DNA of 64,000 nucleotides from Mobula hypostoma (Eukaryota). Shown piece after piece: positions 2,656 to 60,474 of the stretch. A program made the position numbers and the translations under genes. The notes beneath the pieces were generated by a model. The model saw only the letters and a list, made by a program, of their open reading frames with translations. It made no database searches and was not told where the DNA came from. Within the stretch, counting starts at the first letter, position 1. Each line of letters starts with the position of its first letter. Where the stretch lies: assembly GCF_963921235.1 (NCBI RefSeq), contig NC_086097.1:79176001-79240000 (forward strand), in the 5' to 3' direction.

Positions 2656-4150
2656 AGAAGAAACCAATTTTTTTTAAATGGTGTACAACCACAATGTACA
2701 TATATTCAAAGGATTAAGTGCCCATGTGCTTCAAACTCAGGAATGTAACATTCAGGTACAGCAACATATGAGGAAGGCAGACTAATGGGTTTTACTGCAG
2801 AAAGAATCAGAGTACAAGTTTAACAAAGTCTTATAATTGTACTGGGTTTGATAAGACACTACTCGTAGTAACATGTACAGCTTTGGGGATCCATATCCAA
2901 GGGTGGATATGATGTGGTGCAAAAGCTTGCAAGATTAATTCCAGAGACGTGGCAAGACGGAGTCATGTGAAGCTATACTTTCTGCAGTTTTAAAGGGAAG
3001 TAGTTTCATTGGGATGTGAAATTCTGAGCAGACTTGACAGGGAAACTACATCCCCTGTCTGGAGGGTCTAGAATAAGGGGAAGTGGGACCTAACTTTCAA
3101 AACAGTTAAGGAGTTGTGAATCTTTGAAGTTTTCTTCCTGAGATGATAGTGAATACTTAGCTGTTCAGGTCAGAGGTGGACAGATTTTACTTCTCCAAGA
3201 GTATCACAGATATTATGGGGACATGTGAAAGGGTAGTCAAGAATCAACCGTCATCATAATGGCACAAAAGCCAAGAACCTTTCCCACTGCTTTTATTGAC
3301 TAACAAAATTATTGCAAACAGTAGCTTTTGCATTTCTGCTGCCATTGAGGCACATTAAATGGAACTCTACTAGCTGTTAAAATGCAAAAAAGAGATGGTA
3401 ACACTACTATTATAAAACAGACCTTGCAGAATTCACTGCATCTTTATACTTATACTTATACTTTATTGTCGCCAAACAATTGATACTAGAACGTACAATC
3501 ATCATAGTGATATTTGATTCTGCTCTTCGCGCTCCCTGGAGTACAAATCGAAAACAATTAAACCACTTCTATATTTTCACCATCACAAACATTGTTTTGA
3601 CTTACCTTATGGTGAAATTATAATTATGGTTAAGAGCAATGCAATTTGTAATTATCCCTGCCTTAGTGTCTGGACTATAATCCATTAGTAATCTGAGGCA
3701 GGGCAATATTAGATCTGCAGAGCAGTAATTGATCTGAAATACACCAAAGATGGTGGAAGTAGATTCAATAGCACCTTTCAATATAATATTGGACAAAGGA
3801 TTAATCTGCAGGGCTGTGGAGATGGAGCAGGGGAATGGTTTAATTAAATTGCATGAGCAACTAGTACACAAAGACACAATGGGCTGAACGAACTTTTGTT
3901 TTGCTGAAGGCTCAACGGTGCAGGTTTCCTTTTTATAAAAAGTCCACCTTGTTTATGCACACCTTATCCATTGTACTCCGTTTAGTTAACTACGTAGTTG
4001 ACATTCACAGTACACCTTACACATAAAGAATGGCACTGAGCTTCCAGAATGAGTTGGCCACATCAGGACAGGAAGCAGAAAATTCTTGGAAGTGGGAGGG
4101 TAGAAACGGGACCTACTTGATGGTCTAGGAAAAAGCATAATGACACTTAC

Positions 4151-4332
4151 CTCAGGCAGATATTTGTTGATTCTTCAAAGGATGCATCTAAAGAACTCGG
4201 TTGGTTTTGATGTTCCGGGTTTGAGGCCTTGATCATGGTATTAATGTCTTCAGCCCATGAATCTCGTTGCTCACGACAGGAAGCTTCAAGGAAATGCTCT
4301 ACAGAATTCTTTGCCTTCAATTTTATCACCAG
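4151..4332 (-). CDS. PLEK2: Pleckstrin-2 coding exon 3 (C-terminal part of PH1 domain)
   Basis: ttgacag| LVIKLKAKNSVEHFLEASCREQRDSWAEDINTMI... |gtaagt; 182 nt. Confidence 0.93.
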
Positions 4333-4687
4333 CTGTCAAAAAGGTAAACAGATAATCAGATCTTTGTTTTCATGTTCTTGTATGTTGGCAAAAATTGTCC
4401 AGATTCTATTAAATGACTACAAACTGCATTCTCAAGATGTTAAATAACTGATTTTGCTCAAAAAACAAATAACTACATTAACTGTGACATGTGGAAGAGA
4501 GTCACATTGATCAATCAGTCACCAGATTCAATGACCAGGGATATTATTCTAATTAAGAAGATACACAAATGTGGGCAGTATCAGAAAGAAATTGTGTAAC
4601 CAGAATCTTAAATTGCATTGTAATATTAGAGAGGTGGAAGAAAGAAATTCATAAGCAAAACGAAGAAATAAGTTTCAACATTCTTAC

Positions 4688-4852
4688 CGGTCTGTTTTCA
4701 TAATCCAGGCAGGGACAATAGACTGTACATCCTACCAAAGAAATAATGCCCCTGGGACGAGACTCCTTCTTTCCTCCTTCAATTTTATAGTAGAGAAGTT
4801 GATCTTTTGACAATACAAACCAGCGTGCTTTCCAGTTGTGCACAATATGACC
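4688..4852 (-). CDS. PLEK2: Pleckstrin-2 coding exon 2 (PH1 domain)
   Basis: ttccag| GHIVHNWKARWFVLSKDQLLYYKIEGGKKESRPRGIISLVGCTVYCPCLDYENRP |gtaag; 165 nt; GH.VHNWKARWF and CP.LEYENRP motifs are typical of PLEK2. Confidence 0.95.
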
Positions 4853-5499
4853 CTGGAATTAAAGCAATCCAAAAGGAAATCCTAATCAGTACAAACACCC
4901 TTAATTGCCATAGTAAGAATTTTTATTAAAACCGATTAACTTTGACAGACAAAAGCATAGCCTTCCATACTTGGTATTATCAACAATTAGTTTACAAAAT
5001 TTGTTTACAAAATTTATCAACAAATTCTCGACTATTTACACCTGCTGTAGAGTGACAGTTCTAGAAAATCCTAATAGGAACAACCTGCCACACTTCATAA
5101 TTCACTACGCCCTCCTCGTTCAAAGTCCAAAGCCGACAATGATTCTCCCTTCTCAGATGCTGCCTGGCCAGCCGAGTTCCTACCGCACGTTTTTTTTGTA
5201 CTCCAACCGTCTCTTTCTTGTGCCAATTATAGTTATTAGACGATCTAATTGACAATATACGCAAGTAGCGTCATATTCATAAATAATTCTGAACAGTATT
5301 GACTGCCCGTTACGGAATGTCGTTGGGAAGAGCCACTAAATAGAAAACAATAATGAATAACCTGCAAGGTAAAAGGGAAGCGATGTACTTCGATGTTCCT
5401 CTTGTTTAACTGTGGTGTAATAAAAGGTCGACATTTCTAAACAATTGGTGAATGAACGAATCGATTTTTCATCCTCTAGACCTTTGAGTCACCCTGACC

Positions 5500-5900
5500 A
5501 GCCTCAATCGCCCCCAGTTCCTCCACTCGGTCGAGGTCGAGGCGACCTCAGCCACCCCGCCCGCGCCAGCGAGCTAGCGTTGTGAGTGAAAACCCGACAC
5601 ATTCGTGCCTGCTCCGTCCCCAGTGAGTCAGTTTGGGAATATACGTGTGTTGGTGGGTCTAAAATCGGGTCCGGGCTACGCGGTGGAATATCCCCAGCTG
5701 ACTGCCCTTTCCCGACCGCACATGAAGAAAGTACCTAAAACAGGACTCCCGGGGACGCTGGAGACCGCGGCCGGACAAACGGGATGTGGTGGTTATAGAA
5801 CGGCCATGCAAAGGCAAAAAATAATTATGTTCTTCTCCCGCTCCGACAGAATAAGACCCTCTACTACCATGGGTCGCGTCAGGCGGTTAGGTAAACTGCT
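5500..5900. promoter_or_regulatory. CpG-rich segment in PLEK2 intron 1 (CpG-island-like)
   Basis: Visibly dense CG dinucleotides and a GC-box-like ccccgccc in otherwise CpG-poor DNA; no repeat recognised. Confidence 0.5.
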
Positions 5901-6404
5901 GAAAGTCTGTTCCTTGATAAAAGAGGCTTAAGATTTTTTTTTGCGAATGAATTATCAACACTTCACTTTGGCTCCAACTTGTGATTCTTTTATTCGAGTC
6001 TGTTTAGAAAACAGAATATCATGCGGCAACTTCGTTATCACATCACGGTACAGAAATTCCTAAATTCAGATAGTACGGGAGAATAATTCCCGAAGGGAGG
6101 GGGGCTCTGGGTGAATGGTATTCCATTTCCTCATGTTTAGAATTTGTTACCAGGATGCTCCCAAGAAGCAAGGTGGAGGCAAAATAAAACTGGAGATACC
6201 ACGGTAATGGGGGGAGGTGAAGAGAAAAACATATGCAGATTTTATGTTGTTGACGATTTTCTTAAAATCTAGCCCGTCGTTTTATTTACTCATTAGAAAT
6301 AGTTATTTTTCAATTAATTTACTTCGAGCAATTCACTATAAGTGGTTAACACCAAACTGATTTCTCTGGATGAAACTTTTTTTTAAAAAAGTAAGTTTCC
6401 TTAC

Positions 6405-6452
6405 CCGTTTGACCAGGAATCCTTCTCTTATTACACTTGTTTCTCCCTGCAT
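6405..6452 (-). CDS. PLEK2: Pleckstrin-2 coding exon 1
   Basis: ATG at 6452; MQGETSVIREGFLVKR |gtaag; joins in frame to GHIVHNW. Confidence 0.92.
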
Positions 6453-7124
6453 GTTGCCCGACAAATGTCTGGACTCACTCTGTGATCAGCATTGGATTGT
6501 TAAAGACTAAATAGACCAGGAAACATCACGTCAAGTCATGACGACAGGGCGCCTCCTCCACACCTTGGGTGCAGCCAGCGTGACTAATTCTGAGTAATCC
6601 TTGCCTGCAAAGTTTTAAAAGCGTTGACCGGCAGGTGCTGTAAATGGAAATCCTGCTGCAGCTGCAGAACAAAAGAATAAAGAGGGCTCCGCAGCCCCCA
6701 GCCTATTTCCCACGGCCAGCAAGACTGAGGAAAGTTAGTTTGCTGTGTTAAAAGGTCAGAGGGTTGCTTTCAACGATGTGACATACGTCCTGAAATTCCT
6801 CTACACCAGGAAAAAGCTCCATAAAGTGGTGTTGAGTGGATGCTCGTACAAGTTTTGGAGAAATCCCACGTGAACTCTAATATTGCTAAGCTTTAAGATG
6901 GAGTCAGTAAGCCTTGAGATACTGTGGAGCTAGAGAGTGTGAGAGGGAGAGAGGTGGCATTTTAAGAGCTGTAGGTACCAGACTCAATGGCAAATGGTTG
7001 GTCAAATGTGAATGAGAGTTGGACGATCAGGGACTGGCTGGGAGTCCTGGATGTGTGCACAACTAGACCTACCTCAGAAAATAAACTAGGACAGTGGTGG
7101 GGGGAGGGGTGTGATGTGAGAAAT

Positions 7125-7600
7125 ATACGGGCACAATTGAGAGCATCCTGACTGGCTGCATCACTGCCTGGTATGGGAACTGAACTTCCTTCAATCGCAG
7201 GACTCTGCAGTGAGTGGTGCGGACAGCCCAGTGCATTTGTAGTTGTGAACTTCCCACTATTCAGGGCATTTACAAAGACAGGTGTGTAAAAAGGGTCCGA
7301 AGGATCATTAGGGACCCGAGTCACCCCAACCACAAACTGTTCCAGCTGCTACCATCCAGGGAAACCATATCACAGCATAAAAGCCAGGACCAACAGGCTC
7401 CGGGACAGCTTCTTCCACCAGACCATCAGACTGCTTAATTCATGCTGACACAACTGTATTTCTGTGTTATATTGACTAACCTGTTGTACATACTATTTAT
7501 TGTAAATTACTATGATTGCACATTTAGACTGAGGAGTAACGTAAAGATTTTTACTCCTCATGTTTATGAAGTATGTGAGTAATAAAGTCAATTCAATTTA
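7125..7600 (+). mobile_element. 3' end of Rex1/Babar- or L2-type LINE
   Basis: IESILTGCITAWYGN...IIRDPSHPNHKLFQLLPS C-terminal motifs; aataaa-gtcaattcaatt tail. Confidence 0.7.
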
Positions 7601-8407
7601 CAGTAAGTATTTGCAGGGTAGGGGATTTGCAACACCAGTCTGAAAATCTCGCACTGTAAGCTTTGTTAGCACAACTGGATATTAGACAAGGGACATCAGC
7701 CTGTGTGTTGGATGCTGTTTGATGCCACTACACGCCAGAAGAACCATGTGAATAAGTGTGCCATGTGCCTGGAGAATGCAGATATGGAGTACAAGCATTC
7801 ACAAGAAATCTCGTCCACACAGCACACAGCTATGTTCCTGTGCTGCTTCTACAAGCAGGTCTTTCATTGTGCTCTGCATACAAAATATGATATCTGCATA
7901 CAGTATATGATAATAAACCCAACTTTGACTTTGAATGTTGAACGACAAGAGAGAATTTCTAAGCTAAAATCTTCATGAATAAGATGTTGTGGAATTTATT
8001 TTATTTGGACAATGATCAGACAATTTGTACCCCATTTTTCATCCTGCAAACAGAATTCTGATGAAATACAGAACATGGATGTGTATGGGGTGTCCGGGGA
8101 GGAGTAGCCCCTCTGGAGAATAGGCTTGTTGGGTCCTTTCTGTGGCAGCTCACTCATCTTTAGTTCCCACCAGACACTCAGCTCTCTCCTGTGGCTCCAA
8201 GTAGCTGTTTGCATGTGACAGCAGCCACACCCCTTCAACAGGCAGGCTAACCCAGGTGAGAGTAACCAGCGACCTCGTATCCCAGTGAATTTGGGACATG
8301 CCTGTCGTAGCATGTGAAGTCAGCCTGGCAGACTAGGCAGAGGAGATCTACAGTGAGACCCAACAGCAAGGAAGGCAGCTCTGTAAAATTCAAGTCAAGT
8401 CAAGTCA

Positions 8408-8666
8408 AACATGAGGAATTCTGCAGATGCTGGAAATTCAATCAACACACATCAAAGTTGCTGGTGAACGCAGCAGGCCAGGCAGCATCTCTAGGAAGAG
8501 GTACCGTCGACGTTTCAGGCCGAGACCGAGATAGTAAGGATCTCTTACTAGCTCTTCTTTCAGTTAGTCCTGATGAAGGGTCTTAGCCCGAAACGTTGAC
8601 TGTACCTCTTCCTAGAGATGCTGCCTGGCCTGCTGCGTTCACCAGCAACTTTGATGTGTGTTGCTC
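8408..8666. repeat. Penelope-derived inverted-repeat element inserted in a (CAAGT)n LINE tail
   Basis: Arms ~8433-8527 and ~8579-8664 are reverse complements; caagtcaagtcaagtca on both sides. Confidence 0.75.
8566..8601 (+). ncRNA. Minimal type I hammerhead ribozyme motif
   Basis: AGUC-CUGAUGA-A-GGG(UCUUAG)CCC-GAAA-CGUU-GACU: helix I AGUC/GACU, conserved core boxes, helix II, palindromic ACGU in place of helix III; this copy has a GUU triplet. Confidence 0.6.
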
Positions 8667-11469
8667 AAGTCAAGTCAAGTCACTTTTTATTGTCATTTCG
8701 ACCATAACTGCTGGTACAGTACAGAGTAAAAACAAGACAACATTTTTCAGGACCATGGTGCTACATGAAACAACACAAAAACTACCCTGAACTACATAAA
8801 ACAACACAAAACTACACTAGACTACAGACCTACCCAGGACTGCATAAAGTACACAGAACAGTGCAGGCATTACAATAAATAATAAACAAGACAATAGACA
8901 GTGGAGGGCAGTAGGTTGGTAGTCCGATGGCTTGGGGGAAAAACTGTTACATAAATAAACAGCTGAATGGCGGCGTCCGGGATCATGTCCGTTTCCGTAC
9001 TCCCCCCGAGTATTTTGTTAGAGCATTCCATGGAGAGTGAAAGGCCTGACAAGGCACAGAAGAAGTCAAGGTCATCCAGTGCAACCAAGGAAGACCTCAG
9101 TTATAACGCATGTTTCTACCACTGGACCCAGAATTCCAAGGTCGAGAGAGTGGAACTGCTCCAGTGTAACGGCCTTCTCACTGTAAAGACTCTCCGACAC
9201 AGGTTTCCTGTCGTCACCAGATACAACAGACAACCACCACCATAGAATATAGAACAGTACAGCACATGATCAGGCCCTTTCCACTTGTTCTCTTTTGTTA
9301 ACTTTCACTTCTTCCTAAGATGCTGTTGAGTGTTTCCATCATTTTTGCTTTTAAGATGTTCAGAGTTTGCAGAATTAAACAGATGAGTTGGGTCTGTGAC
9401 TGGACATTAGAAAGGAGCAAACCAAGTGTGAGTGGATAGTGCAATGTGAGATGCGAGTAGACTCAGTTACTATATTAGATAGATATACAAATGCAGTTGG
9501 GATCAAGAGAGGCGAGCGCCACATAAACCATTCCCAAAATGACTGATAGCACCCATTATGACGGTGACCATGGAATACTTATCCATCCTTTAACAAGGCA
9601 GTCTGCACTGTCCTCCAATGCTGCCCTACTATCGTGCATATGGTTTGGACTGCCATTGTCCAGTTATATCCACTTATCTATCCAAATGTAGCTGACAAAT
9701 TGTAATATCTTTTCTTATAACTTGCATCATCTTGCAGGCAGCCACAGAACAAAGAAGCACAGTAGAAGCCACTAAAGAAACCCAATAGGTGGGGAAAAAA
9801 AAGAACAAATCATGAAAATAATTAAAAATTAAACAAATAACACAGAGAACATTAATATCACATCTGATCATGCAGTACTTCCTCAGTAGAACATTGAGCT
9901 GTCAACCTAGATTACCTGCTGACGCCCTGCTGTCAGACTCAGGACACAACTATTTTAAAGTTTCCCTCGTGTGTAGATGAGTGGGATAGAAACTGGTAGT
10001 AGTTGATGAGAATGTTGGATTGCTATAATATTACTGTAAAATCCTATAGATTTTACCGTACTGACTCGGTAGACCAGAGGGCTTGTTCCTGTGCCTTATC
10101 ATTTTGACTTTATTATTGAAATTGGACCTTACAGTGTCAGTTACATCCCAGGTTCATTTGTTCACTGTTGCTTTTTAATCATGTTCCCCACCCGAGATTA
10201 CGTCAAAATCAGAGACCTGCTGCTGAAACTGAAAATTTGCAAGATAGATGGGGGTGAATGTAGCTTAAATCTCTTACTAGCAGAGCTGTACTGTTAATAT
10301 TATTGATTTAACACATTTGTCTTGTTTGCAGAGCCACTCAGACACTGGTACATCATACCAGCCTATACCAGATTACTTTCTCCTTTGATGAAGGACAAGC
10401 TGGGTATTTAGTAAGCACACAAGGCCTTAGAACGAAAATACAGGTGTTCATCTTTCATGCATAACCTGGTGCACTTTGAAACATTTGGGAATGGACTTGG
10501 GAATATATAGCAAGTAACTAAATGGAGAATGAGAACAAAGCAGTATCTATGCCAATATGAGGATGAGTTTTGGTCAATTTGGAGTCGACATCAATGAGTC
10601 CCCTATGCTTGTCACTCAGCTGACTGTTCTGAAGTGGGTCTCTGATCCAGGAAGCTGTGCAGTACAAGGCTTCCTGCCAAAGGCAGCAAGTCCCACTCCC
10701 AATGCTTTGAAAACTAAGATATAGGCTTCCTGGCTACAACAATTGCCAATAGACTTCCAATGTCTGTGGTATTTTCAAGCATACAAAACAATGCAAACAT
10801 GGTTAAAAAATTAATCATACTATTAAAACAACTCTAAAAATAAATAACACCAGAAAACATTTAAAGGTAATTAGATATATTTAAATTGCACAGTAATTGA
10901 ACATGCAATGATCTAAAACCTGCCATCTGCCTCAGAGCAATTCCTCTCCATTCAAAGAATAGAATTGCTAAATCAGTATTAAGTCTGAACTGACTTTGTT
11001 TCAACTAATTGAGCCATGCTTGTTGCAGTTGCAACAGTTCGACTTCCCAGTATAATTGCAGGAAGTTGGTGCTCTGCTTCTGGACTCTACAAGGAGACCG
11101 GGGTCAGAAGCCAGTTGTAGTAGATAAGAGGCCCTCATAAGAAGTTTGGAATTACCTTATTTGTGTCTGAGGCCTTCAGGAATATTTAATATTTCTAATC
11201 TCTGGCAATCTTAGGATCAAAAGCAACAAATTTCACGCCACACAATTATGTCAGTGATTTTAAATCCAATTCTGATTCTCCTCACAAAGGATGTTATAAA
11301 TGCCCCTTTAACAGTGACACACCATCGTTCCATATGAAGCCATGACTTCACATGGATAGACGGGCTGATTAGTGCTAGCTGGTTCGGCAGAATGTTGTGG
11401 GCCGGGGGGGTCCTGTTCCTGTGCTGTACTGGTCTATGTTCTATAATTGGAAGGAAAGCCTCTATTTCC

Positions 11470-16545: not shown

Positions 16546-17559
16546 CAGTCCAAAACTGTGGCTGTTGCAACAATGGGAAAAAACATTGCTACCCAATATT
16601 CAGGTTCTGAAGGATCGTTCTACACTATATGTAAACAACATGTTAGTGTTACTAATTAGTATGTAAATTTGCTTCAATGAGAATGTGAAATAAATTTGGG
16701 GGCAAGAGGCAATTTGGATTAGAGCAACACACATAAAAATGCAGCAGGCCAGGCAGCATCTATCGGAAGAGGTATAGTCGACGTTTCGGGACGAGACCCT
16801 TCGTCAGGATTGGATTAGAATTTGTTCTTCATCAGAAGGATTAATTTATCATTTGGACCAGTTTCCCTTTACTGTAAAAGTAGAAAGTTAGTTTTGTTAT
16901 ATGATACCACAGATACTTTGACCAGACTCTTGGTCAAAATAAAACTGTGCTAGTGATTCATACTAAACTCCACCCTAACAAGAAGGCAAACATGACCCAG
17001 GCTGTTGAAGGCAATTAATCAGCTCTGTACTTGTCTGGAAATAACCCATAACCATTTTTGGGCATGCACTGTGTATGTAATCACATTTAAATTATAGCAT
17101 TATCTACTGGCTAGTCACAACAAGCATACAACACATTCTTTTTGGTTTTGAAATCAGGCAATCATGTGACAGGATGCTTGATCTGCAACAATTACAGAAC
17201 TAGCCAGGTAAAGGCAATTGCCTCTCCACTGTTGCATTCCTGAGAGCCCTTTTTAATTGCAGTCTATTGTGGTTCAGACAAAAGAAGCAATCAATATGAG
17301 TTCATGAGTTTGGTTTCCTGCACTGGGTAACTGTTTTAGTTACACAAACGTGAGAGAACCTGCTGATGCTGGAGATCCAAAGCAATACACTCAAAATGCT
17401 GGAGGAACTCAGCAAGTCAGGCAGCATCGATGGAAAAGAATAAACAGTCAACATTTCGGGACTCAGCCCAAAACATCGACTGTTTACTCTTTTCCATAGA
17501 TGCTGCCTGGCCTGCTGAGTTCATCCAGTATTTTGTGTGTGTAACTATTTTAGTTACTA

Positions 17560-18800: not shown

Positions 18801-20170
18801 ACTAGATGTCCTAGTTAAGCACTTCAGAAGTATAATCATTGCTGCAGAAAACAAGGGAGCCAAAGCAAAACTCACAACATGCTGGGGGAACTCAGCAGGT
18901 CGGGCAGCATCCGTGGAAACGATGAGTCGATGTTTTGGGCTGGAACCTTCGTCAGGTCCTGACCCTATGTCCTGACCTATGTTCCGGCCCGAAACATCAA
19001 CTGATCTTTTTCCACGCATGCTGCCCAACCTGCTGAGTTCCTCCAGTGTGTTGTGAGTGTTGCTTTGACCCCAGCATCTGCAGAGTATTTTGTGTTTAAC
19101 AAGGGAGCCAAATTGGACCCATCAAGCACATACAATTGCAACATGCTAATGATTTTTTTACAATTGAGTGATATATGTTCACGACTCCACCAGGGCAGCA
19201 CAATTATTTGTCCTCAAGAAGCTATTTTGGTACGTTTCAGGACATCCTGAAAAAAAGTCTTGGGTGTGTTCATTTAACCTCTTAAAAAATGGTCATAGTT
19301 CCACCAACGTAGAACTACCTTGATATTGCACCGGAGCGGAGTTTTGAAGTTTAAATTTTAGTAAATCCCATGTACCTGGCGTGGGGCTTGAACTAACAGG
19401 GCAGTAAACCACAGCTAATAACAACATATCTTCAATAAATGAGAAATAAATGTGGCAATACTCTTACAACACTGATCCACCTCTGTCCTTTCTATTTTTA
19501 CATGTAGTATCAAATAATTTTACCTTGGATTTCTTTTCTATATTCAGTTTCTCCTTTGCCTCCCAAAGACATTGACACAATTTGGAATATAGTTGCATAA
19601 ACACACAACCTCTGGCATCTTAAACATTATCCAGTTATCATTTTGAAAGTGAGCAGTAGAGTATTTCAGTGCAGAAACAGGCCCTTCAGCCCTTCAACTC
19701 TGTACTTACCTTCAACCATTTTTTTTAACCAGACCCACTTATTCAACCCATACTTCCAAGACCTCCCTCTTGATTCAGCTACACTCTAGGGGAAATTTAT
19801 AGTTGCCAATTAACCTGCTGACCTGCATTCTTCAGGCTGTGAGAAGAATGCTCAGTACCCAGAGGAAACCATGTGATCACAGAGAATGTGCATATTCCAC
19901 ACTGACTATTGCAACATACAATGTTTCTGTCTTCTATTCCAGTAATGGCCACGTGCGAACCTGCTAAAGGGGTAACTAGACAGAGCTCTTGGTTATCCAA
20001 TTATTACCTGAACTAAGATCATCAATTCTAACTAAACTGCTGGTGAGATACTGACATTCATGTTCCTGCGTCCATGTGATGATGGGAAGTTAATTTTTAT
20101 CTGAACTCATTTGTAGACTAGAGAAGCTTTCAGAACTTGATGTGGGGAAAATATCTTTAACTTTAACAGG

Positions 20171-21094
20171 ATGTTGGAATGCTCCTCTTGCAGGATGTGG
20201 AAAGTCAGGGAGCCCTCCGGTGTCCCTGACAACGACACCTGCAAGAAGTGCATCCAGCTGCAGCTCCTGACAAACCGCGTTAGGGAGCTGGAGCAGGAGC
20301 TGGATGACCTGCGGATCATTCGGGAGAATGAGGAGATTATAGATCGTAGCTACAGGGAGGTAGTTACGCCAAAGGAGCAGAGGACAGGAAATTGGGTCAC
20401 TGTCAGGCGAGGGAAGGGGAAAGGGCAGGCAGAGCAGGGTTCCCCTGTGGCCATTCACCTCAACAACAAGTATACCGCATTGGATACTGTTGGGGGGGAT
20501 GACTTACCTGGGACTAGCTGCAGTAGCCGGATCTCTGGCACTGGGTCTGGCTCTGCAGTGCAGAAGGGAGGGTGGAAAAAGAGGAGAGCGGTAGTGATAG
20601 GGGACTCGATAGTTAGAGGTGCAGATAGGAGGTTCTGTGGTCGTGACAGAGAATCCAGGATGGTTTGTTGCCTCCCGGGTGCCAGGGTCAAGGATGTCTC
20701 TGATCGATTGCATGACATTCTGAAGTGGGAAGGTGATCAGCCAGATGTCGTGGTGCACATCGGTACCAATGACATAGCAAGGAAGAGTGAAGAGGTCCTG
20801 GACAGTGAGTATAGAGAGCTTGGTAGGAAGTTGAAAAGCAGGACCTCGAGGGTGGTAATCTCAAGATTGCTACCTGTGCTAGGTGCCAGTGAGGGTAGGA
20901 ATAGGATGCTCTGGAGGATGAACAAGTGGCTGAGGAACTGCTGTAGGGAGCAGGGATTCAGATTTCAGGATAATTGGGACCTCTTCTGGGGCAGGTGGGA
21001 CCTGTACAAGAGAGACGGGTTACACTTGAACTACAGGGGGACCAATATCCTTTCAGGGAGGTTTGTTAGTGCTATTGGGGAGGCTTTAAACTAG
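20171..21094 (+). CDS. CR1 ORF1p: zinc finger/coiled coil plus SGNH esterase domain
   Basis: CSSC..CKKC, coiled coil, VIGDSIVR, HIGTND, DGLHLN; 307 aa open. Confidence 0.9.
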   Translation: MLECSSCRMWKVREPSGVPDNDTCKKCIQLQLLTNRVRELEQELDDLRIIRENEEIIDRSYREVVTPKEQRTGNWVTVRRGKGKGQAEQGSPVAIHLNNKYTALDTVGGDDLPGTSCSSRISGTGSGSAVQKGGWKKRRAVVIGDSIVRGADRRFCGRDRESRMVCCLPGARVKDVSDRLHDILKWEGDQPDVVVHIGTNDIARKSEEVLDSEYRELGRKLKSRTSRVVISRLLPVLGASEGRNRMLWRMNKWLRNCCREQGFRFQDNWDLFWGRWDLYKRDGLHLNYRGTNILSGRFVSAIGEALN

Positions 21095-21096
21095 AT

Positions 21097-23904
21097 TTGC
21101 AGGGGGATGGGAACCAGAGTGCCAGAGCTGACAGTGTGGCTGGGGTGAAAATAAATGATGTTAAAAGTTCAAGCAAATCCGCTAATAGAAAGGTTGTGAA
21201 TGGTGGTAAAAATCTTCTGAGGTGTATATACTTCAATGCTAGGAGTATTGCGGGGAAGGCGGATGAGTTGAGGGCGTGGATTGACATGTGGAATTATGAC
21301 GTTATAGCAATTAGTGAAACTTGGCTACAGGAGGGACAGGACCAGCAGATTCCAGGGTTCCGATGTTTCCGATGTGATCGAGGCAGAGGAATGAAAGGTG
21401 GGGGAGTAGCATTGCTTGTTAGGGAAAATATTACAGCAGTGCTCAGGCAGGACAGGTTAGAGGGCTTGTCTACTGAGTCCTTATGGGTGGAGCTGAAAAA
21501 CAGGAAAGGTATGGCCACATTAGTGGGATTGTATTACAGACCACCCAATAGTCAACGAGAATTGGAAGAGCAAATCTGCAGGGAAATAGCAAGCAACTGC
21601 AGGAAACATAAAGTTGTGGTGGTAGGGGATTTTAATTTTCCATATATTGATTGGGACTCCCATACTGTTAGGGGTCTAGATGGTTTAGAGTTTGTAAAAT
21701 GTGTTCAGGAAAGTTTTCTAAATCAATATATAGAGATACCAACTAGCGGGGATGCAATATTGGATCTCCTGTTAGGAAACGAGTTAGGACAAGTGACTGA
21801 AGTCTGTGTAGGGGAGCACTTTGGTTCCAGTGATCATAACACCATTAGTTTCAACTTGATCATGGACAAGGATAGATCTAGTCCTAGGGTTGAGGTTCTT
21901 AACTGGAAGAAGGCCAAATTTGAAGAAATGAGAAAGGATCTAAAAAGCGTGGATTGGGACAGGTTGTTCTCTGGCAAGGATGTGATCGGTAGGTGGGAAG
22001 CCTTCAAAGGAGAAATTTTGAGAGTGCAGAATTTGTATGTTCCTGTCAGGGTTAAAGGCAAAGTGAATAGGAATAAGGAACCTTGGTTCTCAAGGGATAT
22101 TGCAACTCTGATAAAGAAAAAGAGGGAGTTGTATGACATGTATAGGAAGCAGGGAGTAAATAAGGTGCTTGAGGAGTATAAGAAGTGCAAGAAAATACTT
22201 AAGAAAGAAATCAGGAGGGCTAAAAGAAGACATGAGGTTGCCTTGGCAGTCAAAGTGAAGGATAATCCAAAGAGCTTTTACAAGTATATTAAGAGCAAAA
22301 GGATTGTAAGGGATAAAATTGGTCCTCTTGAAGATCAGAGTGGTCGCCTATGTGCGGAACCAAAGGAAATGGGGGAGATCTTAAATAGGTTTTTTGCATC
22401 TGTATTTACTAAGGAAACTGGCATGAAGTCTGTGGAATTAAGGGAAACAAGTAGTGAGATCATGGAAACTGTACAGATCGAAAAGGAGGAAGTCCTTGCT
22501 GTCTTGAGGAAAATTAAAGTGGATAAATCCCTGGGACCTGACAGGGTGTTCCCTCGGACCTTGAAGGAGACTGGTGTTGAAATTGCAGGGACCCTGGCAG
22601 AAATATTTAAAATGTCGCTGTCTACAGGTGAGGTGCCGGAGGATTGGAGAGTGGCTCATGTTGTTCCGTTGTTTAAAAAAGGATCGAAAAGTAATCCGGG
22701 AAATTATAGGCTGGTAAATTTAACGTCGGTAGTAGGTAAGTTATTGGAGGGAGTACTCAGAGACAGAATCTACAAGCATTTGGATAGACAGGGACTTATT
22801 AGGGAGAGTCAACATGGCTTTGTGCGTGGCAGGTCATGTTTGACCAATCTATTGGAGTTTTTTGAGGAGGTTACCAGGAAAGTGGATGAAGGGAAGGCAG
22901 TGGATATTGTCTACATGGACTTCAGTAAGGCCTTTGACAAGGTCCCGCATGGGAGGTTAGTTAGGAAAATTCAGTCGCTAGGTATACATGGAGAGGTGGT
23001 AAATTGGATCAGACATTGGCTCAATGGAAGAAGTCGAAGAGTGGTAGTAGAGAATTGCTACTCCGAGTGGAGGCCTGTGACTAGTGGTGTGCCACAGGGA
23101 TCAGTGCTGGGTCCATTGTTATTTGTCATCTATATCAATGATCTGGATGATAAGGTGGTAAATTGGATCAGCAAGTTTGCTGATGATACAAAGATTGGAG
23201 GTGTAGTAGACAGCGAGGAAGGTTTTCAGAACCTGCAGAGGGACTTGGACCAGCTGGAAAAATGGGCTGAAAAATGGCAGATGGAGTTTAATGCAGACAA
23301 GTGTGAGGTTTTGCACGTTGGAAGGACAAACCAAGGTAGAACATACAGGGTAAGGCATGGTAAGGCACTGAAGAGTGCAGTGGAACAGAGGGATCTGGGA
23401 ATACAGATACAAAATTCCCTAAAAGTGGCATCACAGGTAGATAGGGTCGTAAAGAGAGCTTTTGGTACATGGGCCTTTATTAATCAAAGTATTGAGTATA
23501 AGAGCTGGAATGTTATGATGAGGTTGTATAAGGCATTGGTGAGGCCGAATCTGGAGTATTGTGTTCAGTTTTGGTCACCAAATTACAGGAAGGATATAAA
23601 TAAGGTTGAAAGAGTGCAGAGAAGGTTTACAAGGTTGTTGCCGGGACTTGAGAAACTCAGTTACAGAGAAAGGTTGAATAGGTTAGGACTTTATTCCCTG
23701 GAGCGTAGAAGAATGAGGGGAGATTTGATAGAAGTATATAAAATTATGATGGGTATAGATAGAGTGAATGCAAGCAGGCTTTTTCCACTGAGGCAAGGGG
23801 AGCAAAAAACCAGAGGACATGGGTTTAGGGTGAAGGGGGAAAAGTTTAAAGGGAACATTAGGAGGGGGCTTCTTCACACAGAGAGCGGTGGGAGTATGGA
23901 ATGA
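21097..23904 (+). CDS. CR1 ORF2p: APE endonuclease plus reverse transcriptase (no AUG start; late frameshift ~23865)
   Basis: NARS, SETW, YYRPP, GDFN, SDHN; DFSKAFD, GVPQGSVLGP, KFADD; 935 codons open. Confidence 0.93.
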   Translation: MQGDGNQSARADSVAGVKINDVKSSSKSANRKVVNGGKNLLRCIYFNARSIAGKADELRAWIDMWNYDVIAISETWLQEGQDQQIPGFRCFRCDRGRGMKGGGVALLVRENITAVLRQDRLEGLSTESLWVELKNRKGMATLVGLYYRPPNSQRELEEQICREIASNCRKHKVVVVGDFNFPYIDWDSHTVRGLDGLEFVKCVQESFLNQYIEIPTSGDAILDLLLGNELGQVTEVCVGEHFGSSDHNTISFNLIMDKDRSSPRVEVLNWKKAKFEEMRKDLKSVDWDRLFSGKDVIGRWEAFKGEILRVQNLYVPVRVKGKVNRNKEPWFSRDIATLIKKKRELYDMYRKQGVNKVLEEYKKCKKILKKEIRRAKRRHEVALAVKVKDNPKSFYKYIKSKRIVRDKIGPLEDQSGRLCAEPKEMGEILNRFFASVFTKETGMKSVELRETSSEIMETVQIEKEEVLAVLRKIKVDKSLGPDRVFPRTLKETGVEIAGTLAEIFKMSLSTGEVPEDWRVAHVVPLFKKGSKSNPGNYRLVNLTSVVGKLLEGVLRDRIYKHLDRQGLIRESQHGFVRGRSCLTNLLEFFEEVTRKVDEGKAVDIVYMDFSKAFDKVPHGRLVRKIQSLGIHGEVVNWIRHWLNGRSRRVVVENCYSEWRPVTSGVPQGSVLGPLLFVIYINDLDDKVVNWISKFADDTKIGGVVDSEEGFQNLQRDLDQLEKWAEKWQMEFNADKCEVLHVGRTNQGRTYRVRHGKALKSAVEQRDLGIQIQNSLKVASQVDRVVKRAFGTWAFINQSIEYKSWNVMMRLYKALVRPNLEYCVQFWSPNYRKDINKVERVQRRFTRLLPGLEKLSYRERLNRLGLYSLERRRMRGDLIEVYKIMMGIDRVNASRLFPLRQGEQKTRGHGFRVKGEKFKGNIRRGLLHTESGGSME

Positions 23905-24231
23905 GCTGCCAGACGAGGTGGTAAATGCGGGTTCTTTTTTAACATTTAAGAATAAATTGGACAGATACATGGATGGGAGGTGTATGGAGGGATATGGTCC
24001 ATGTGCAGGTCAGTGGGACTAGGCAGAAAATGGTTCAGCACAGCCAAGAAGGGCCAAAAGGCCTGTTTCTGTGCTGTAGTTTCTATGGTTCTATGGTTTA
24101 CAAAACACACCGCTATTCAGTATTAACTTGCAAGGTTACTTCAGAGACTAATAACGGTGAGATGAGTAATTTAGATGGTGTAACATACACAAAATGCTGG
24201 AGGAACTCGGCAGGCCAGGCAGCATCTGTCT

Positions 24232-24267
24232 AGTCGACATTTCGGACGGAGACCCTTCATCAGGACT
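24232..24267 (-). ncRNA. Minimal type I hammerhead ribozyme motif
   Basis: Minus strand AGUC-CUGAUGA-A-GGGUCUCCGUCC-GAAA-UGUC-GACU; GUC triplet. Confidence 0.6.
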
Positions 24268-24789
24268 GGGGGAAAACGATGAGCAGTCAGAGTTAGAAGG
24301 TGAGCGGACTTAGCTCACCTGCGTGAAGGATGAAACAATTCCTTTTGATTTTTGCCAATATATGCTCACAGTCACATAAAGGGAAATGAGAAAACATAGA
24401 GAGGCACATGTCAGTTGCATCAAATTGTCTGTTCATGTGTCTTTGGGTTCTGTACGATTCTTCTTGGTAATACAGTGGGTCATCAGTTAATCAGGCAGCT
24501 GCTTATTTGGGACAACCCTTAAAGAATAAAAAAACTACAGAAACAGGCCTTTCAGCCCATATTGTCCATGCGAAAGCCATTTAAACTGCCTAGTCCCAAT
24601 GACCAGGGCCATCGTCCTCCATATCCCTAATATCCATAATTCTCTTAAACATTGAAATTGAGCTCGCATGGATCACTTGAGTTGGCTGCTCATTCCACAC
24701 TCTCATGACCCTCTGAGTGAAGGAGTTTCCTCTCATGATCCCCTTAAACTTTTCACCTTTCACCCTTAAACCACGACCTCTGGTTATAG

Positions 24790-31100: not shown

Positions 31101-32432
31101 CTCCACCGCGTTGTGTGGCACTATCACCGCGTTGTGTGGCACTATCACCGCGTTGTGTGGCACTATCACCGCGTTGTGTGGAACTACCACTGCCGTTGTG
31201 TGGCACTACCACCGCGTTGTGTGGAACTACCACTGCCGTTGTGTGGCACTACCACCGCGTTGTGTGGAACTACCACCGCATTGTGTGGCACTATCACTGC
31301 CGTTGTGTGGCACTACCACCGCGTTGTGTGGCACTACCACCGCGTTGTGTGGAACTACCACCGCATTGTGTGGCACTATCACTGCCGTTGTGTGGAACTA
31401 CCACCGCATTGTGTGGAACTACCACCGCATTGTGTGGCACTACCACCGCATTGTGTGGCACTACCACCGCGTTGTGTGGAACTACCACCGCATTGTGTGG
31501 AACTACCACCGCATTGTGTGGCACTATCACTGCCGTTGTGTGGAACTACCACCGCATTGTGTGGAACTACCACCGCATTGTGTGGCACTATCACTGCCGT
31601 TGTGTGGAACTACCACCGCGTTGTGTGGCACTACCACCGCATTGTGTGGCACTACCACCGCATTGTGTGGAACTACCACCGCATTGTGTGGCACTACCAC
31701 CGCATTGTGTGGAACTACCACCGCATTGTGTGGAACTACCACCGCATTGTGTGGCACTACCACCGCATTGTGTGGCACTACCACCGCGTTGTGTGGAACT
31801 ATCACTGCCGTTGTGTGGAACTATCACCGCGTTGTGTGGCACTACCACCGCCGTTGTGTGGCACTACCACCGCGTTGTGTGGAACTACCACCGCATTGTG
31901 TGGCACTATCACCGCATTGTGTGGAACTACCACCGCATTGTGTGGAACTACCACCGCGTTGTGTGGAACTACCACCGCATTGTGTGGAACTACCACCGCA
32001 TTGTGTGGAACTACCACCGCATTGTGTGGAACTACCACCGCATTGTGTGGCACTACCACCGCGTTGTGTGGAACTATCACTGCCGTTGTGTGGAACTATC
32101 ACCGCGTTGTGTGGCACTACCACCGCCGTTGTGTGGAACTACCACCGCGTTGTGTGGCACTACCACCGCGTTGTGTGGAACTATCATTGCCGTTGTGTGG
32201 AACTATCACCGCATTGTGTGGAACTACCACTGCCATTGTGTGGAACTACCACCGCATTGTGTGGAACTACCACTGCCATTGTGTGGCACTACCACTGCCA
32301 TTGTGTGGCACTACCACTGCTGTTGTGTGGCACTACCACTGCCGTTGTGTGGCACTATCACCGCGTTGTGTGGCATTACCACTGCTGTTGTGTGGCACTA
32401 CCACGGCCGTTGTGTGGCACTACTACCGACCA
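31101..32432 (+). repeat. Minisatellite, ~60 copies of a 21/22-bp unit (CACCGCRTTGTGTGGMACTAY / CACTGCCGTTGTGTGGMACTAY)
   Basis: Directly visible tandem array; no stop codons in any + frame. Confidence 0.97.
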
Positions 32433-36610: not shown

Positions 36611-39104
36611 ACTCTCCTATGGTCCAAACATCAGTATAACAACAGTCATTTTTTTTTTAGTTAAAGGAGTAACAGTTAATATTTCATGCTTTGTATTGGT
36701 TTTGAATGTCGGGATGGCCAATTTCCCACAGTAGTTTGATTTTACCCTGTTCTCTTTTGCCTTTTGATGAAGGTTATAAAATAGCAGGAGTGGTAACGGG
36801 AGGTTCAGCTGACAGAACAAACTTAGGGTAACTTACACAAGGATGAAAGAGCCAGGGAAAAGATAACAGACCTCCAGAGTAAGTGAAGTTAGCGATAGTG
36901 AAAGGGAAAACATAAATAATAAGGATAAAAATAATTAGAGCTTAAACACAAGATAGGGTTTTTTTTTGGTATATTACTAACCCACTTATGTGAATGAGAA
37001 AGAATTTGTAGTCAGATTAAGATGATGAAATTTTAATTACCTACTCTAAATTTCCATTCTATATCTGTAAGATAAAACAAAATGATCTGAATTTCAAATT
37101 TTAAAAAATCCTGCAAATGCTGGAAATCTGAAATAAAAACAAAAAATGTTGGGAAGACTCAGCAGGTTAGGCTGTATCTGTGGAAAGAGAAAGAGTTAAC
37201 ATTTCAGATCAAATATCCCTGTTCAGAATCTTTCAATTTCCAAGGAAGGGTCTTCAGCCTGGAACGTTAGCTGTTTCTGCAGGTGCCGTCTCACTTGCTT
37301 TGTGCAGATATTTTCTATTAATTCAAAATCTGTCCATACAAATATTTCGTGTAATTTGGCTCTGCAATTTGTTGTTCATTCCCTCCGGAACTGGATGAGA
37401 TTTTTTTTGGGGTGGGGGGTGGAGTTGGAGACAATCTAACACATCACAATTCAATAGAGACTTCTGAAGAAAGTATTTCAAACAGATGTCATCTTGTTGA
37501 GAGATAGTATAGAGGAGATGGAGACTGACAAAGACTAGAGCAGGAGCACACAAACAAATTTTCATTGCTAACAAAGGGAAGAGAGAAGATCTAGCAGGGC
37601 CACCAAATAGATGACAATAATACCAGAACTGTGCATGGGCTCAGTAAAGATTGGAATGAGAGCTTCCAGCTGAACTAATTAACTAATTTAGTTAATGACA
37701 TGGGCAAAGATTGCATCATTGCAATTATATCACATTATAACACTTAGCTCTTGCCACATATTGACTTTGGTTATTGGAAAAAATTAATTTCACAGATTAT
37801 TTATTGATCTTATTTTCTTTCCATAGCTCAATAGAGATTATAGGTGTGTAGGAATAGGCAGGATGAGTTTTGGGAGGTTTAGCTGACGGAACAAACTCGA
37901 ATAATTTAGACAATGATGAAATAATTAGAGGAAAATCAATAAAGACCAAGCTAGCAATGGGCAAAAATATATAAAGGCTAAAATAGTTAGAGCTCAAATA
38001 CAAAATAAGGATTAATGTAATGTACTACTGACCCTCTGATGTGAGAGGAGGGACCTGCATTCAGTTTAAGATTGTGAGATTTTAATTATCTACTTGGAGG
38101 TTGGGATAGACAGAAAATGGAATACACATGATTAGAACAATGCTCAGGGTACTTGGTTGGCTTCCCTAAAACAGAGGAAAAGCTGGAAATGATTGGGCAA
38201 TTAGTCTGATATCTGTGCTATGAAAATTAGTGAAGACTATAGTCTACTGAAAGGTCCCAAAACCAAAGCATTAACTCTGTTTCTCTTTCCACAGATGGAC
38301 CCCAATATGCAGAGTGTTTCCAGCATTTTGATTTATTTCAGATTTCCAGCATCTGCAGTTTAAAAAAAAATATTTTTCACTTAGAATAATCTGGTTAAAA
38401 GGGAAAACCATTTTAGATTTATTAAAGGCAATCCATGTAATCTCAATTTTGAGGTTAGAAAGTGGACTGATTAAGACAAGTTGTATGTTTGGGCAACATT
38501 TTGCAAAGGCAGTTTTTGTAAAGGTGAAGCACATGGTACTATTGAGACAAAAATAAGAAGCACAATAATGAAGGCAGACAACCATAAAAAAGAGTATTAG
38601 GATAATTGTTTTTCATATATAAATTATCTGGACTGGTACAGGAGTGTATTTTTGAAATTTAAAGATGTTACAACATTTTGCAGCACAGTAACCAGTAAAC
38701 AGGACGGTAGTGGAAACACAGGAGAATGGTAAAATGACCAGATGTATAAGCAATTAAATGCAGATAGATATGAAGGGATTGCTGACCAGAGGGATGAAAA
38801 TTTGTAAATTCTTGTAGGTAGCAGGACAAGTGATAATATTGGTATAGATGGGTGGGTTTTTGCTTTAACCACCTTTCAGATAGTGACTTTTGTGTGAATG
38901 TTTTTTTTCCTCATTTCATTGAAAATCTTCCTAATTACTTTAAATTCAGTTATTTTTTTGACCAATTCATTGAGAAATTAGTTTTTTTTAAAAATCCCTC
39001 TACAAGGCCTTATTTTGTTTTAAACATCACTATTGATTCTTCCTTCAGCCTCATCTGTTTCAAAAGTCTAGATTATCCTATCATTTCACGATAAAAATAA
39101 TTCT

Positions 39105-41214: not shown

Positions 41215-42785
41215 TCCCTGGCCTCTGAGGCCACTCTCAGGTTGGAGGAGCAACACTTCATATTGTCTAGGTAGCCTCCAACCTGATGGTAGGAAAATTG
41301 ATTTCTCCAATTTTTGGTAATTCCCCACCCCCTTCAATTCCCTACTCTGCGGGCGCTGCAGGAGAAGTGTAGCAGGTGCATGGGATGGGGGTGGGGGGGG
41401 GGAAGAGGGGGTAGCACTGGTGCAAATACACCCAGCCCTGAGACACCAGGCAAGTTCATTTGATTCCAAATAAGCCCTGGACAATAATTCTTTTTGTTAA
41501 GTGTTGCTTCCTCAGAAATTTTTTTTTACGATTTATGATAGACCGCTTGAAGCTGAACACAAACCTAATTTCAGACCTCTTGTATCATATAGGAAATTGG
41601 AGAAAAAATAAATTAACTTTTATTCAATGTTTTGTTAATGATTTTTGTTTGTACTGTGTCTGAGGCTTCTTGCTAAGTGTCCAACAATAATCAGCCACTA
41701 TTGATGGATTCCAGTTGCCCTGATACTGTTTCCCCATGACTACAATGTCCTAGCGAAACATTTCATCATGCTTGGTCACTGACAACACCAAGATTTACAG
41801 CGAAGTCGTCTAAACGGGAATGCTGAAAATTAATCTTTTTGTGACATGTTGCACTTCATGGTTTTGTATGTTTGGATCATGTTGTCACTCAGCAGCACAT
41901 ACTTTGGTGCTCTGTTGTTGCCAAGAAAATTTTCAACAATATCCTTGAGTGCCTTCCATGTGATTTTCACCAGTCCTACCAGATTTTTGAACTGCCTACC
42001 ATTGATGACCTGTTCGATTTGTAGACCAACAAAAATGCCTTCCTTAATCTTGACATCACTTATTCCGACTTCAATTATGAATTGAAATACAAATATTGGC
42101 AATTTCAAAAATGGTGTCATAGGGAAATTTCATAGTGATTTTCATGATCAGCGGGCCAAAATCCATAACATGCTCCCAAAAGTGTTCAGAAAGCAACAAT
42201 CTTTGTTGTCCGGTGAAATTGGTTTATTGATCATTACAGAATGTTTCTCTGGTGGTTCCCACTTCCTAACCTTGATTCCTCTCTCCCAGCCTACTTTCCA
42301 CTCAGTCCACAATTGAGACCCATATTAGGACCAGGTTTATCATCTCTCATGTCATGAATTTTTTTTTGCAGTAGTACAATACATAATTACTACAATACTG
42401 TGCAAGAGTATTAGCACTTGTAGATACATATATATGCCCCAAGACTTTTGCACAGTATTGTACCTCTTCTCAGCTGCCTGTCACATCCCTCTAGTGACCC
42501 TCCTCCTTCCTTTTCTTCCATGGTCTACTCTCCTATCAGATTCCTTCTCCAGCCCTTTATCTTTTTCACCATCACACCCCTGCTAATTACTTCATCACCC
42601 CTCCCTAACCACCTCACTTCACCCTTCATCTTCCAGCTTGTCCTTCTTCCCTTCCCCCCACCTTCTTATTCTGGCATCATTCTCCTTCCTTTCCAGTCCT
42701 GATAAAGGGCCACAGACCAAAATGTGGACTGTTTTATTTCTTTAGATGCTGCCTGACCTGCTGAGTTCACCCAGCTTTTTGTAAA
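41215..42785 (+). mobile_element. Penelope-like element 3' end (GIY-YIG C-terminus plus terminal repeat), split by nested insertions ~41345-42460
   Basis: EATLRLEEQHFI/LGSLQPDGRKIDFSNF at 41225-41315; pyrimidine-rich UTR resumes at 42461 and ends in the hammerhead-like repeat 42695-42785. Confidence 0.75.
41475..42215. mobile_element. Chapaev3 (CMC) DNA transposon deletion derivative
   Basis: Minus strand KIKEGIFVGLQI..WKALKDIVENFLGNNRAP..YKTMKCNMS, SDQA..MFR, QYQGNWNPSIVADYCWTL; termini CCCTGGACAA / TTGTCCGGTG. Confidence 0.75.
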
Positions 42786-47227: not shown

Positions 47228-47916
47228 CTGGATAGAGAGGAGAAGTCAAGCATTAATGCATTTTGTCAAAATTACACTGGATTTAGTTATTGATGATCAG
47301 GGGAGGAAAACAAAAATCACTAAAATTTGTAATTTCATCCATGCATAGTTGATGAGGACCAAGCTTATTGATGTGCCCCTGAAATATTTAAACTAATATC
47401 TGCATGATGCATTCTGCACTACCAGAATCTTTTTGTTTAAACTTCATTTGAACCATTCCCCCAATTACAAACTGAAAGTTAGCCTACACAAGCTTTCATT
47501 AGTGATCCATAACTTTTTTTTTTGCAAGTTCTCAGTGTTCAAATGATCCAAACCTCTTGTTTTCAACACAAACATGAGGAATTCTGCAGATGCTGGAAAT
47601 TCAAGCAACACACATCAAAGTTGCTGGCAAACACAGCAGGTTAGGCAGCATCTCTAAGAAAAGGTACAGTCATAAGCATAGAGGGAGTAGAATCTCTTAC
47701 TAACTCTTCCTTCAGTTAGTCCGGACGAAGGGTCTCGGCCTGAAATGTCGACTGTACCTCTTCCTAGAGATGCTGCGTTCACCAGCAACTTTGATGTGTG
47801 TTGCTTTTGCTTTCAAGATCACTTAATTAAATCAATGAATTTTGATGTCCCTGGTTACTGATATTTTCTTAGTGGATTGGTTGTTTGGCTTAAATTATTG
47901 CCCAAATCCTCTTCAA

Positions 47917-48270
47917 CACACACAAAATGCTGGAGGAACTCATCAGGTCAGGCAGCATCTATGGAAAACAGTATAGTTGACGTTTCAGGCTGAGACCCTT
48001 CATCAGGATTGAAACGAAATGAAAGAGGAGAAGTCAAAGTAAGAAGGTGGGGGAAGGGAGAAAGTAGTACAAGGTGGCAGGTGATAAGTGAAACCAGGGG
48101 AGGGGGAGGGGTGAAGTGAAGACCTGGGAAGTCGATTGGTGAAAGACAGAGAGAAATGACTGGAGAAGGGGGATCTGATGGGAGAGGATAGAAGACCATG
48201 GAAGAAAGGGAAGGGGTGAAGCACCAGAGAGAGGTAATGGGCTGGTAAGAAGATAAGGTGAGGTAAGGTC
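47917..48270 (-). repeat. Penelope-derived 3' UTR/terminal repeat with hammerhead motif (~47975-48010); related repeats at 47566-47805 and 48355-48490
   Basis: Reverse complement resembles 42461-42785; CUGAUGA-A-GGGUCUCAGCCU-GAAA-CGUC. Confidence 0.7.
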
Positions 48271-60310: not shown

Positions 60311-60474
60311 TTATTGTTAGATCACGTGCAGTCATTAGGAGCCAAAAAACTAATGACAAGAAAAGGGGTAGAAGGGGAAGCTGCAAAAAGAAATAAAGGG
60401 TCAGGATAAAATATACATACTGCAAAAAATACTGAACAATATAAAGTAACGTGCAAAAATCTTAGGCACGTGTA

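Follow-up and report, generated by a model that had tools for sequence, protein, structure and literature searches.

The short inverted repeats at positions 8408–8666 of a 64,000-nucleotide stretch of Mobula hypostoma DNA (NCBI RefSeq assembly GCF_963921235.1, contig NC_086097.1, positions 79,176,001–79,240,000 of the forward strand; hereafter, the window) raise the question of what kind of element deposited them and whether the deposited copies are themselves working ribozymes. The analysis confirmed the inverted repeats and, within them, a small self-cleaving RNA motif of the hammerhead type. A 24-nt core pattern allowing up to three mismatches was found at six sites in the window (8570+, 16784−, 24240−, 47722+, 47983−, and 56673+), the expected number of matches in 100 dinucleotide shuffles being 0.00, while the decayed motif copy at 42.7 kb and further loci were recovered by blastn and nhmmer with 8408–8666 as the query. 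Together, these searches located all seven motif copies named by an earlier interpretation made without database searches (the sequence-only reading), whose estimate of about 10 full or partial copies proved slightly low. The family totals 13 loci in the window (2,422 bp, 3.8%), or approximately one locus per 5 kb, one of them being a weak fragment of the downstream part (5125–5189, plus strand, nhmmer E 0.06–0.07). The type I hammerhead search with an allowed A insertion, which the sequence-only reading had proposed as a check, was run as a family-independent descriptor and yielded two strict matches, 8566–8601(+) and 24232–24267(−), along with 16776–16811(−), which has a single mismatch in helix I; the corresponding means in 100 shuffles are 0.01 and 0.05. 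No matches remained in the 64-kb window when the inserted base was disallowed. The Rfam scan of the window in E-value mode gave no match to a hammerhead family, and its miRNA matches were dismissed as hairpin artefacts scoring far under the gathering thresholds.

The motif of the copy under study (8565–8602, plus strand) is a minimal type I hammerhead formed by a 5-bp helix I, the CUGAUGA box, an inserted A, a 4-bp helix II, the GAAA box, and the palindrome ACGU, with U at N17 and the cut predicted after 8597. The previously described set of elements (helix I, both catalytic boxes, helix II, a GUC triplet, and ACGU in place of helix III) stands for the consensus, whereas none of the seven copies is equal to the consensus, and the triplet of the 8408–8666 copy reads GUU. 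Helix I, given earlier as the 4-bp AGUC/GACU, can be 5 bp long, and the 15.2–16.2 palindrome is ACGU in four motifs and AUGU in three, at a CpG site. The core (CUGANGA, GAAA, and UH between helices I and II; 11 core positions) is present in the consensus and free of lesions in four of seven copies, each of which has another defect: GUU (8.5k), a truncated helix I, AUGU, or a broken helix-I closing pair. The remaining three motifs bear core lesions, namely G8A and G12A at 42.7k, U4G at 47.7k, and U4C at 56.7k. The unpaired A between positions 9 and 10.1 was observed in all seven motifs, and the 10.1–11.1 pair, also at a CpG site, is G-C in four and G-U in three. All four diagnostic traits of the minimal hammerheads of Penelope-like elements (PLEs) are found in the consensus.

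Changes inside the motif affect 12 of 65 CpG positions vs. 18 of 272 non-CpG positions. Since the CpG sites include C11.1-G12 and C17-G1.1, ordinary methylation decay would be expected to strike catalytic positions first. Between the majority sequences of subfamilies A and B, 3 of 36 motif positions are changed, all by CpG-type transitions, vs. 16 of 60 downstream positions, a contrast that is borderline (Fisher p=0.035) and based on 5–8 hand-trimmed arms. Selection on the motif in the source elements is thereby weakly supported. A similar comparison upstream of the motif (11/12 differences, p=0.001 pooled) was discarded as an alignment artefact. No two-sided change in helix I or II was seen among the seven copies, which are too few and too closely similar to be informative on covariation.

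When the arms are aligned in the hammerhead orientation, they share two fixed 3′ ends approximately 33 nt apart, roughly 70 and 103 nt past the cut site, whereas their 5′ ends are variable; no poly(A) is present. Two-armed loci with head-to-head arms constitute 6 of 13 loci, the other seven being single-armed, so the fold-back arrangement described earlier as frequent applies to a part of the family. All six two-armed loci have the ~33-nt 3′ extension (tail) on exactly one arm, as judged by eye for the decayed 37.2k case, while two of the solo copies are tailed and four are tail-less. Fold-back arms are 64–85 nt long. The centres of the fold-backs are located ~27 nt upstream of helix I (8.4k and probably 47.6k), at position 2.2 (18.9k), near A9 (48.4k), and in helix II (17.4k), and the starts of the solo copies range from +9 to about −245. 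Target-site duplications (TSDs) above the 95th percentile of the null were detected at 5 of the 12 tested loci (18/18, 10/10, 18/20, 15/15, and 13/14 matching positions; 10–18 bp), with no convincing duplication at the other seven; the random null reaches 16 at its 99th percentile. The predicted cut site is crossed by 16 of 18 arms, one more arm ending at it and one falling short, which implies that the copied RNA was nearly always uncleaved.

The insertion at 8408–8666, a fold-back of subfamily A, illustrates this anatomy, being formed by an inverted arm (8408–8540) and a sense arm (8541–8666) placed head-to-head. The tail occupies 8408–8440 (minus strand) on the inverted arm only, and the paired part of that arm, 8443–8527 (minus strand), matches 8579–8663 over 85 nt at 94%. 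A 24-nt internal deletion at 8527/8528 has removed the antisense of the 5′ half of the motif from the inverted arm. The flanking duplications, 8390–8407 and 8665–8682 (both on the plus strand), agree at 18/18 positions, their length being ambiguous because the 18-mer lies inside a (CAAGT)n run. This run, which hosts the element (8390–8682), looks like the end of another repeat.

Four other fold-backs retain clear features: 17347–17545 (subfamily B, centre on helix II, tail on the left arm, TSD 18/20), 18862–19097 (a third subfamily, centre near position 2.2, one tailed arm, TSD 15/15, decayed core), 47571–47806 (subfamily A, tail on the left arm, motif 47717–47754), and 48354–48486 (a 40-nt tailed arm and a sense arm starting near A9, TSD 13/14). 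The sixth two-armed copy, at 37107–37312, is old and strongly decayed, with a tail on one arm. Solo copies comprise the tail-less 16723–16809 (minus strand, beginning at hammerhead position 2.2, TSD 10/10), the tail-less 24180–24302 of subfamily B (minus strand, motif 24231–24268 with intact core boxes and AUGU), an old tailed arm at 38271–38358 (minus strand; hammerhead sense, plus), and the tailed 56670–56801 (plus strand), which begins at position 2.3/2.2. The longest copies are likewise 5′-truncated: 42465–42782 (plus strand) has a pyrimidine-rich upstream part of ~230 nt and a dead core, and 47914–48253 (minus strand, subfamily B) contains a motif at 47974–48011 with two helix-I mismatches.

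The window is repeat-rich vertebrate DNA. The eIF2-alpha (EIF2S1) gene lies on its minus strand at approximately 45.5–60.3 kb, with exons near 60.2 (S1 domain), 59.1, 57.9, 54.0, 52.6, 47.2, and 45.6 kb, and four hammerhead-repeat loci fall in its introns, among them 47571–47806 and 47914–48253, the latter on the gene-sense strand. In the CR1/L2-type LINE at 20141–24028 (plus strand), ORF1 is esterase-like (GDSL) and the APE-RT frame is open over 944 aa; another copy of this type, in a more fragmented state, occupies 24.6–28.5 kb (minus strand). Beside the LINE is inserted a retrovirus-like pol remnant (28.5–31.1 kb, plus strand) that is split into several frames and has Pfam matches to RNase H and the MLV-type integrase C-terminal domain. 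Directly after the integrase remnant, a tandem array with a unit of ~21 bp (31103–32428) keeps all three plus-strand frames open for 450–510 codons. Two decayed Tc1/Sleeping Beauty-like copies, 55418–56466 and 60473–62008, are 78% identical, and the 56.7k hammerhead copy lies beside or inside the former.

The contigs of four sequencing runs were considered at the 47.9–48.3 kb copy. Two DNA runs placed 106,985 and 104,645 contigs on it, and two presumed-RNA runs placed 8,069 and 10,981, the contigs being silent on expression or cleavage. Summed contig depth is not copy number, but it leaves no doubt that the hammerhead repeat family is present at very high abundance in four organisms. Contig cover on this copy drops steeply from 3′ to 5′, a trend confounded by subfamily divergence and contig breakage. 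Among the rows listed, letters that restore pairing are in the majority at 48009 and 47974 (91 and 86% in run X1), mixed at 47978 (35–64%), and in the minority at 47987 (35–44%). Strand-switch joints were observed in all four runs. Clusters of joints at 48006–48008 and 47965–47968 were rejected as hot spots, since the reference copy has a mismatch of its own at 48009 and an indel close to 47965, which can place joints there. Contigs from three of the four runs also contain joints stepping back by ~50 nt (47914–47967), which may represent incomplete head-to-tail tandems of the 3′ end.

Proteins of the kind encoded by PLEs were sought in and around the copies. None of the 208 window frames of at least 70 aa (9 of 217 being excluded as tandem-array frames) matched a GIY-YIG family, and the RVT_1 matches in the window were not taken for a PLE reverse transcriptase, as they belong to other repeats. 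No ORF was found beside any of the 13 loci or upstream at the loose contig ends at the 47.9–48.3 kb copy, and protein searches with translated copies returned no PLE protein; the longest copy extends just ~245 nt upstream of the motif. Scans of sequence collections for a long copy yielded no matches in viral contigs or in prokaryote genomes and one in metagenomes. This metagenome locus, L001, was considered as a family member and rejected for its unrelated flanks and lack of an ORF longer than 139 aa; the hammerhead motif at its contig end (1–60, minus strand) is similar and includes the extra A, whereas its helix I differs and its loop 3 is palindromic. Protein matches comprise two Mobula gene models (P0001 and P0002), with 91 and 78% identity to a translated copy, in which the repeat serves as coding sequence, and one unrelated repetitive protein. 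Both gene models contain the motif in intact form and exit the repeat at the tail-less end seen in the window copies. Thus, the family is likely to belong to PLEs on the strength of its insertion anatomy, which matches that of published PLE insertions, with no PLE ORF in the window.

The part of the sequence-only reading that stood is the recognition of a high-copy retroelement family with a PLE-type minimal type I hammerhead, frequently arranged as fold-backs. The dispersed, decaying insertions very probably represent the 3′ end (pseudo-LTR), copied with 5′ truncation, of a ray retrotransposon that is Penelope-like, autonomous, and endonuclease-positive. Target-primed reverse transcription would be driven by a full-length PLE at another genomic site, its GIY-YIG/RT protein nicking the target with a stagger of 10–18 bp. 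Reverse transcription would start inside the uncleaved RNA at one of two sites, giving tailed or tail-less ends, and would usually end prematurely, in many cases within the structured hammerhead or close to it. A one-tailed fold-back could form by extension of both target ends from the two start sites or by folding back of the first cDNA, and the present data do not distinguish between these two routes. Ribozyme activity would be confined to source-element transcripts, probably with the help of a protein or as a dimer.

The designation of the family as non-autonomous was not upheld, because 5′ ends and fold-back centres that vary by copy are the look of 5′-truncated copies of a longer element and not of a fixed short unit. 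Its fuller form, in which a PLE-derived SINE-like unit or retrozyme constitutes a self-standing family whose short and fold-back copies are masters borrowing PLE enzymes, is improbable. It accords with the absence of an ORF adjoining any of the 13 loci, with the very high abundance, with two subfamily-A fold-backs sharing a centre ~27 nt upstream of helix I, and with the existence of PLE-derived retrozymes in vertebrates, including one chondrichthyan, according to the available text of bioRxiv 10.64898/2026.07.22.740005. However, at least four different fold-back centres (upstream −27, position 2.2, near A9, and helix II) and solo starts anywhere between +9 and about −245 are at odds with fixed masters, and most PLE insertions are described in the same text as 5′-truncated with a single terminal repeat. 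A head-to-tail array of the hammerhead unit is absent from the 64-kb window. Pol III RNA-derived heads (tRNA, 5S, or 7SL) gave no Rfam match in the window at E≤5, the copies being perhaps too truncated to show one. A MITE-like DNA transposon with a hammerhead-like string in its terminal inverted repeats by chance would account for fold-backs with 64–85 nt arms and TSDs, but such an origin is very improbable given the unequal arms with a tail on one side only, the variable centres, the TSD length varying from 10 to 18 bp, the 7 of 13 one-armed loci, and a motif that fits a 13-nt catalytic core with two helices at a chance rate of 0.01 per window.

A further possibility concerns the present state of the genomic copies, some of which would be functional ribozymes cleaving host pre-mRNA, e.g., in the eIF2-alpha introns, and maintained by selection. 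The four motifs without lesions at the 11 core positions and the gene-sense orientation of the intronic 48.0k copy speak in its favor, as does the proportion of non-CpG core changes (3/88) vs. that in the flanks (68/903), the latter figure being inflated by subfamily mixing. Nonetheless, all four lesion-free motifs are otherwise defective, and the active-like fold is the predicted minimum in none of the seven. Published minimal hammerheads are reported, in the available portion of PMC4209133 (Cervera and De la Pena, 2014), to be inactive as single motifs and weakly active as dimers. The inverted arm of a fold-back would bury the motif, copies in the window being either dispersed or inverted, and this is the predicted state of the 8.5k motif: the 8408–8666 element folds as a single long hairpin (−183.7 kcal/mol, z −21) that sequesters the 3′ half of the motif. 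We consider host-serving ribozymes scarcely credible here; no activity is predicted for the genomic copies in this window. The predicted fold of the majority motif is a rod in which core G5–G8 pair with C15.2–C17 (−12.9 kcal/mol, vs. −8.9 kcal/mol for the open form), and the predicted minimum for two majority motifs together is an inactive duplex. The rod, only a prediction, fits the need for a protein or a partner. All z-scores for single-arm hairpins are within chance.

A splice-acceptor-like stretch at 8540–8567 (plus strand; predicted only) contains a branch-point-like motif, a pyrimidine tract, CAG, and TAG, and its final AG forms the 5′ strand of helix I. Among the five copies with upstream DNA, the helix-I AG is preceded by C or T in four, and a branch-like motif is present in three (background, 23%), the exact TACTAAC occurring once, upstream of the motif in 47571–47806 (6 of 4,200 sites). 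The pyrimidine tract before the helix-I YAG ranks at the 94–99.9th percentile of 4,200 YAG sites; the whole upstream 250 nt is pyrimidine-rich, the copies are few, and no donor or spliced read was seen. The 16.8k and 56.7k copies and the centre of the 18.9k fold-back start within one base of the acceptor-like junction, and the match to P0002 sets in at approximately the acceptor predicted ahead of helix I. The available portion of PMC4209133 maps the end of an intron in D. virilis Penelope to the 5′ end of helix I, an overlap that the acceptor predicted here would parallel. It is conceivable, although rather doubtful, that helix I doubles as a splice acceptor, that splicing swaps its first three bases and so switches the ribozyme, and that reverse transcription preferentially stops or folds back at the junction. 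If the helix-I acceptor is true, the intron–hammerhead overlap of Drosophila Penelope extends to a vertebrate family.

PLE transposition is poorly understood, and so abundant a family offers a very large number of natural examples of start sites, stop sites, and inversion junctions. Genome-wide statistics of the ends could separate two-ended priming by a dimeric PLE protein from self-priming of the cDNA. The hammerhead repeat has also been taken for coding exons in ray gene models, spuriously so in the two Mobula proteins, which matters for annotation. A literature search returned no paper on this hammerhead repeat family in rays; Repbase, Dfam, and some supplements were beyond its scope.

Comparison with known systems places the motif among the minimal hammerheads of metazoan PLEs, including Xena, Poseidon, and Neptune of fish, for which the available portion of PMC4209133 lists a nucleotide between 9 and 10.1, a G10.1-C11.1 pair, and a palindromic 15.2–16.2. 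The likeness extends to the type I architecture without a helix III in the monomer, the unpaired state of the inserted base, a helix I of 4–5 bp, and thousands of mostly single truncated copies with pairs on opposite strands. The extra A is thus the family norm and no surprise, because the inserted nucleotide is among these listed traits. The precedent invoked earlier, an extra A between A9 and G10.1 in the chrysanthemum chlorotic mottle viroid (+) hammerhead, is real according to the available part of PMC3705267 but is not needed, and that viroid hammerhead is a full one with helix III and loop contacts, otherwise unrelated to the present motif. Helix II is 4 bp here, whereas the same portion of PMC4209133 gives 7–8 bp for S. 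mansoni families and 6 for D. virilis. That portion does not mention cartilaginous fish, and its 4,000–9,000 descriptor hits for coelacanth and Xenopus are far fewer than the relics implied by 13 loci per 64 kb, the counts not being measured alike.

With respect to insertion anatomy, the available parts of two studies of endonuclease-positive PLEs (PMC3846280, Arkhipova et al., 2013; PMC8557442, Craig et al., 2021) describe a unit with an inverted 5′-truncated partner, a one-sided tail of 30–40 bp, and a TSD. The copies here share the head-to-head truncated partner, the palindromic junction, the one-ended tail, and the TSD, and differ in the TSD length (10–18 bp vs. 8–10 bp in rotifer PLEs) and in the ORF, which is not seen here. 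For PAc, a Poseidon-type PLE of Anolis, the tail was explained, in the part of the report available (PMC11167929, Frangieh et al., 2024), by two internal start sites of reverse transcription, both target strands undergoing nicking and extension; the substrate is mainly uncleaved RNA, and cleavage depends on the protein. The ray family is alike in its two 3′ ends one tail apart and in the uncleaved template RNA. The 3′ ends lie approximately 70 and 103 nt past the cut here vs. 85–92 nt for the first start in PAc, the ORF of PAc begins at helix II, where no conserved ATG is found here, and its start site is an AC-rich stem-loop, whereas the equivalent stretch of the hammerhead strand is GU-rich. 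Non-LTR retrozymes, as defined in the available text of bioRxiv 10.64898/2026.07.22.740005, are head-to-tail tandems in which two or more successive units each contain a complete hammerhead; they resemble the present family in the type I hammerhead, the origin from a PLE pseudo-LTR, and the non-coding copies, whereas the window shows dispersed single copies or inversions. Publications on PLEs already describe such a motif, its extra base, and this anatomy of insertion, and the repeats studied here likely represent an additional, very abundant PLE family with minimal hammerheads, left in the genome as dead stubs.
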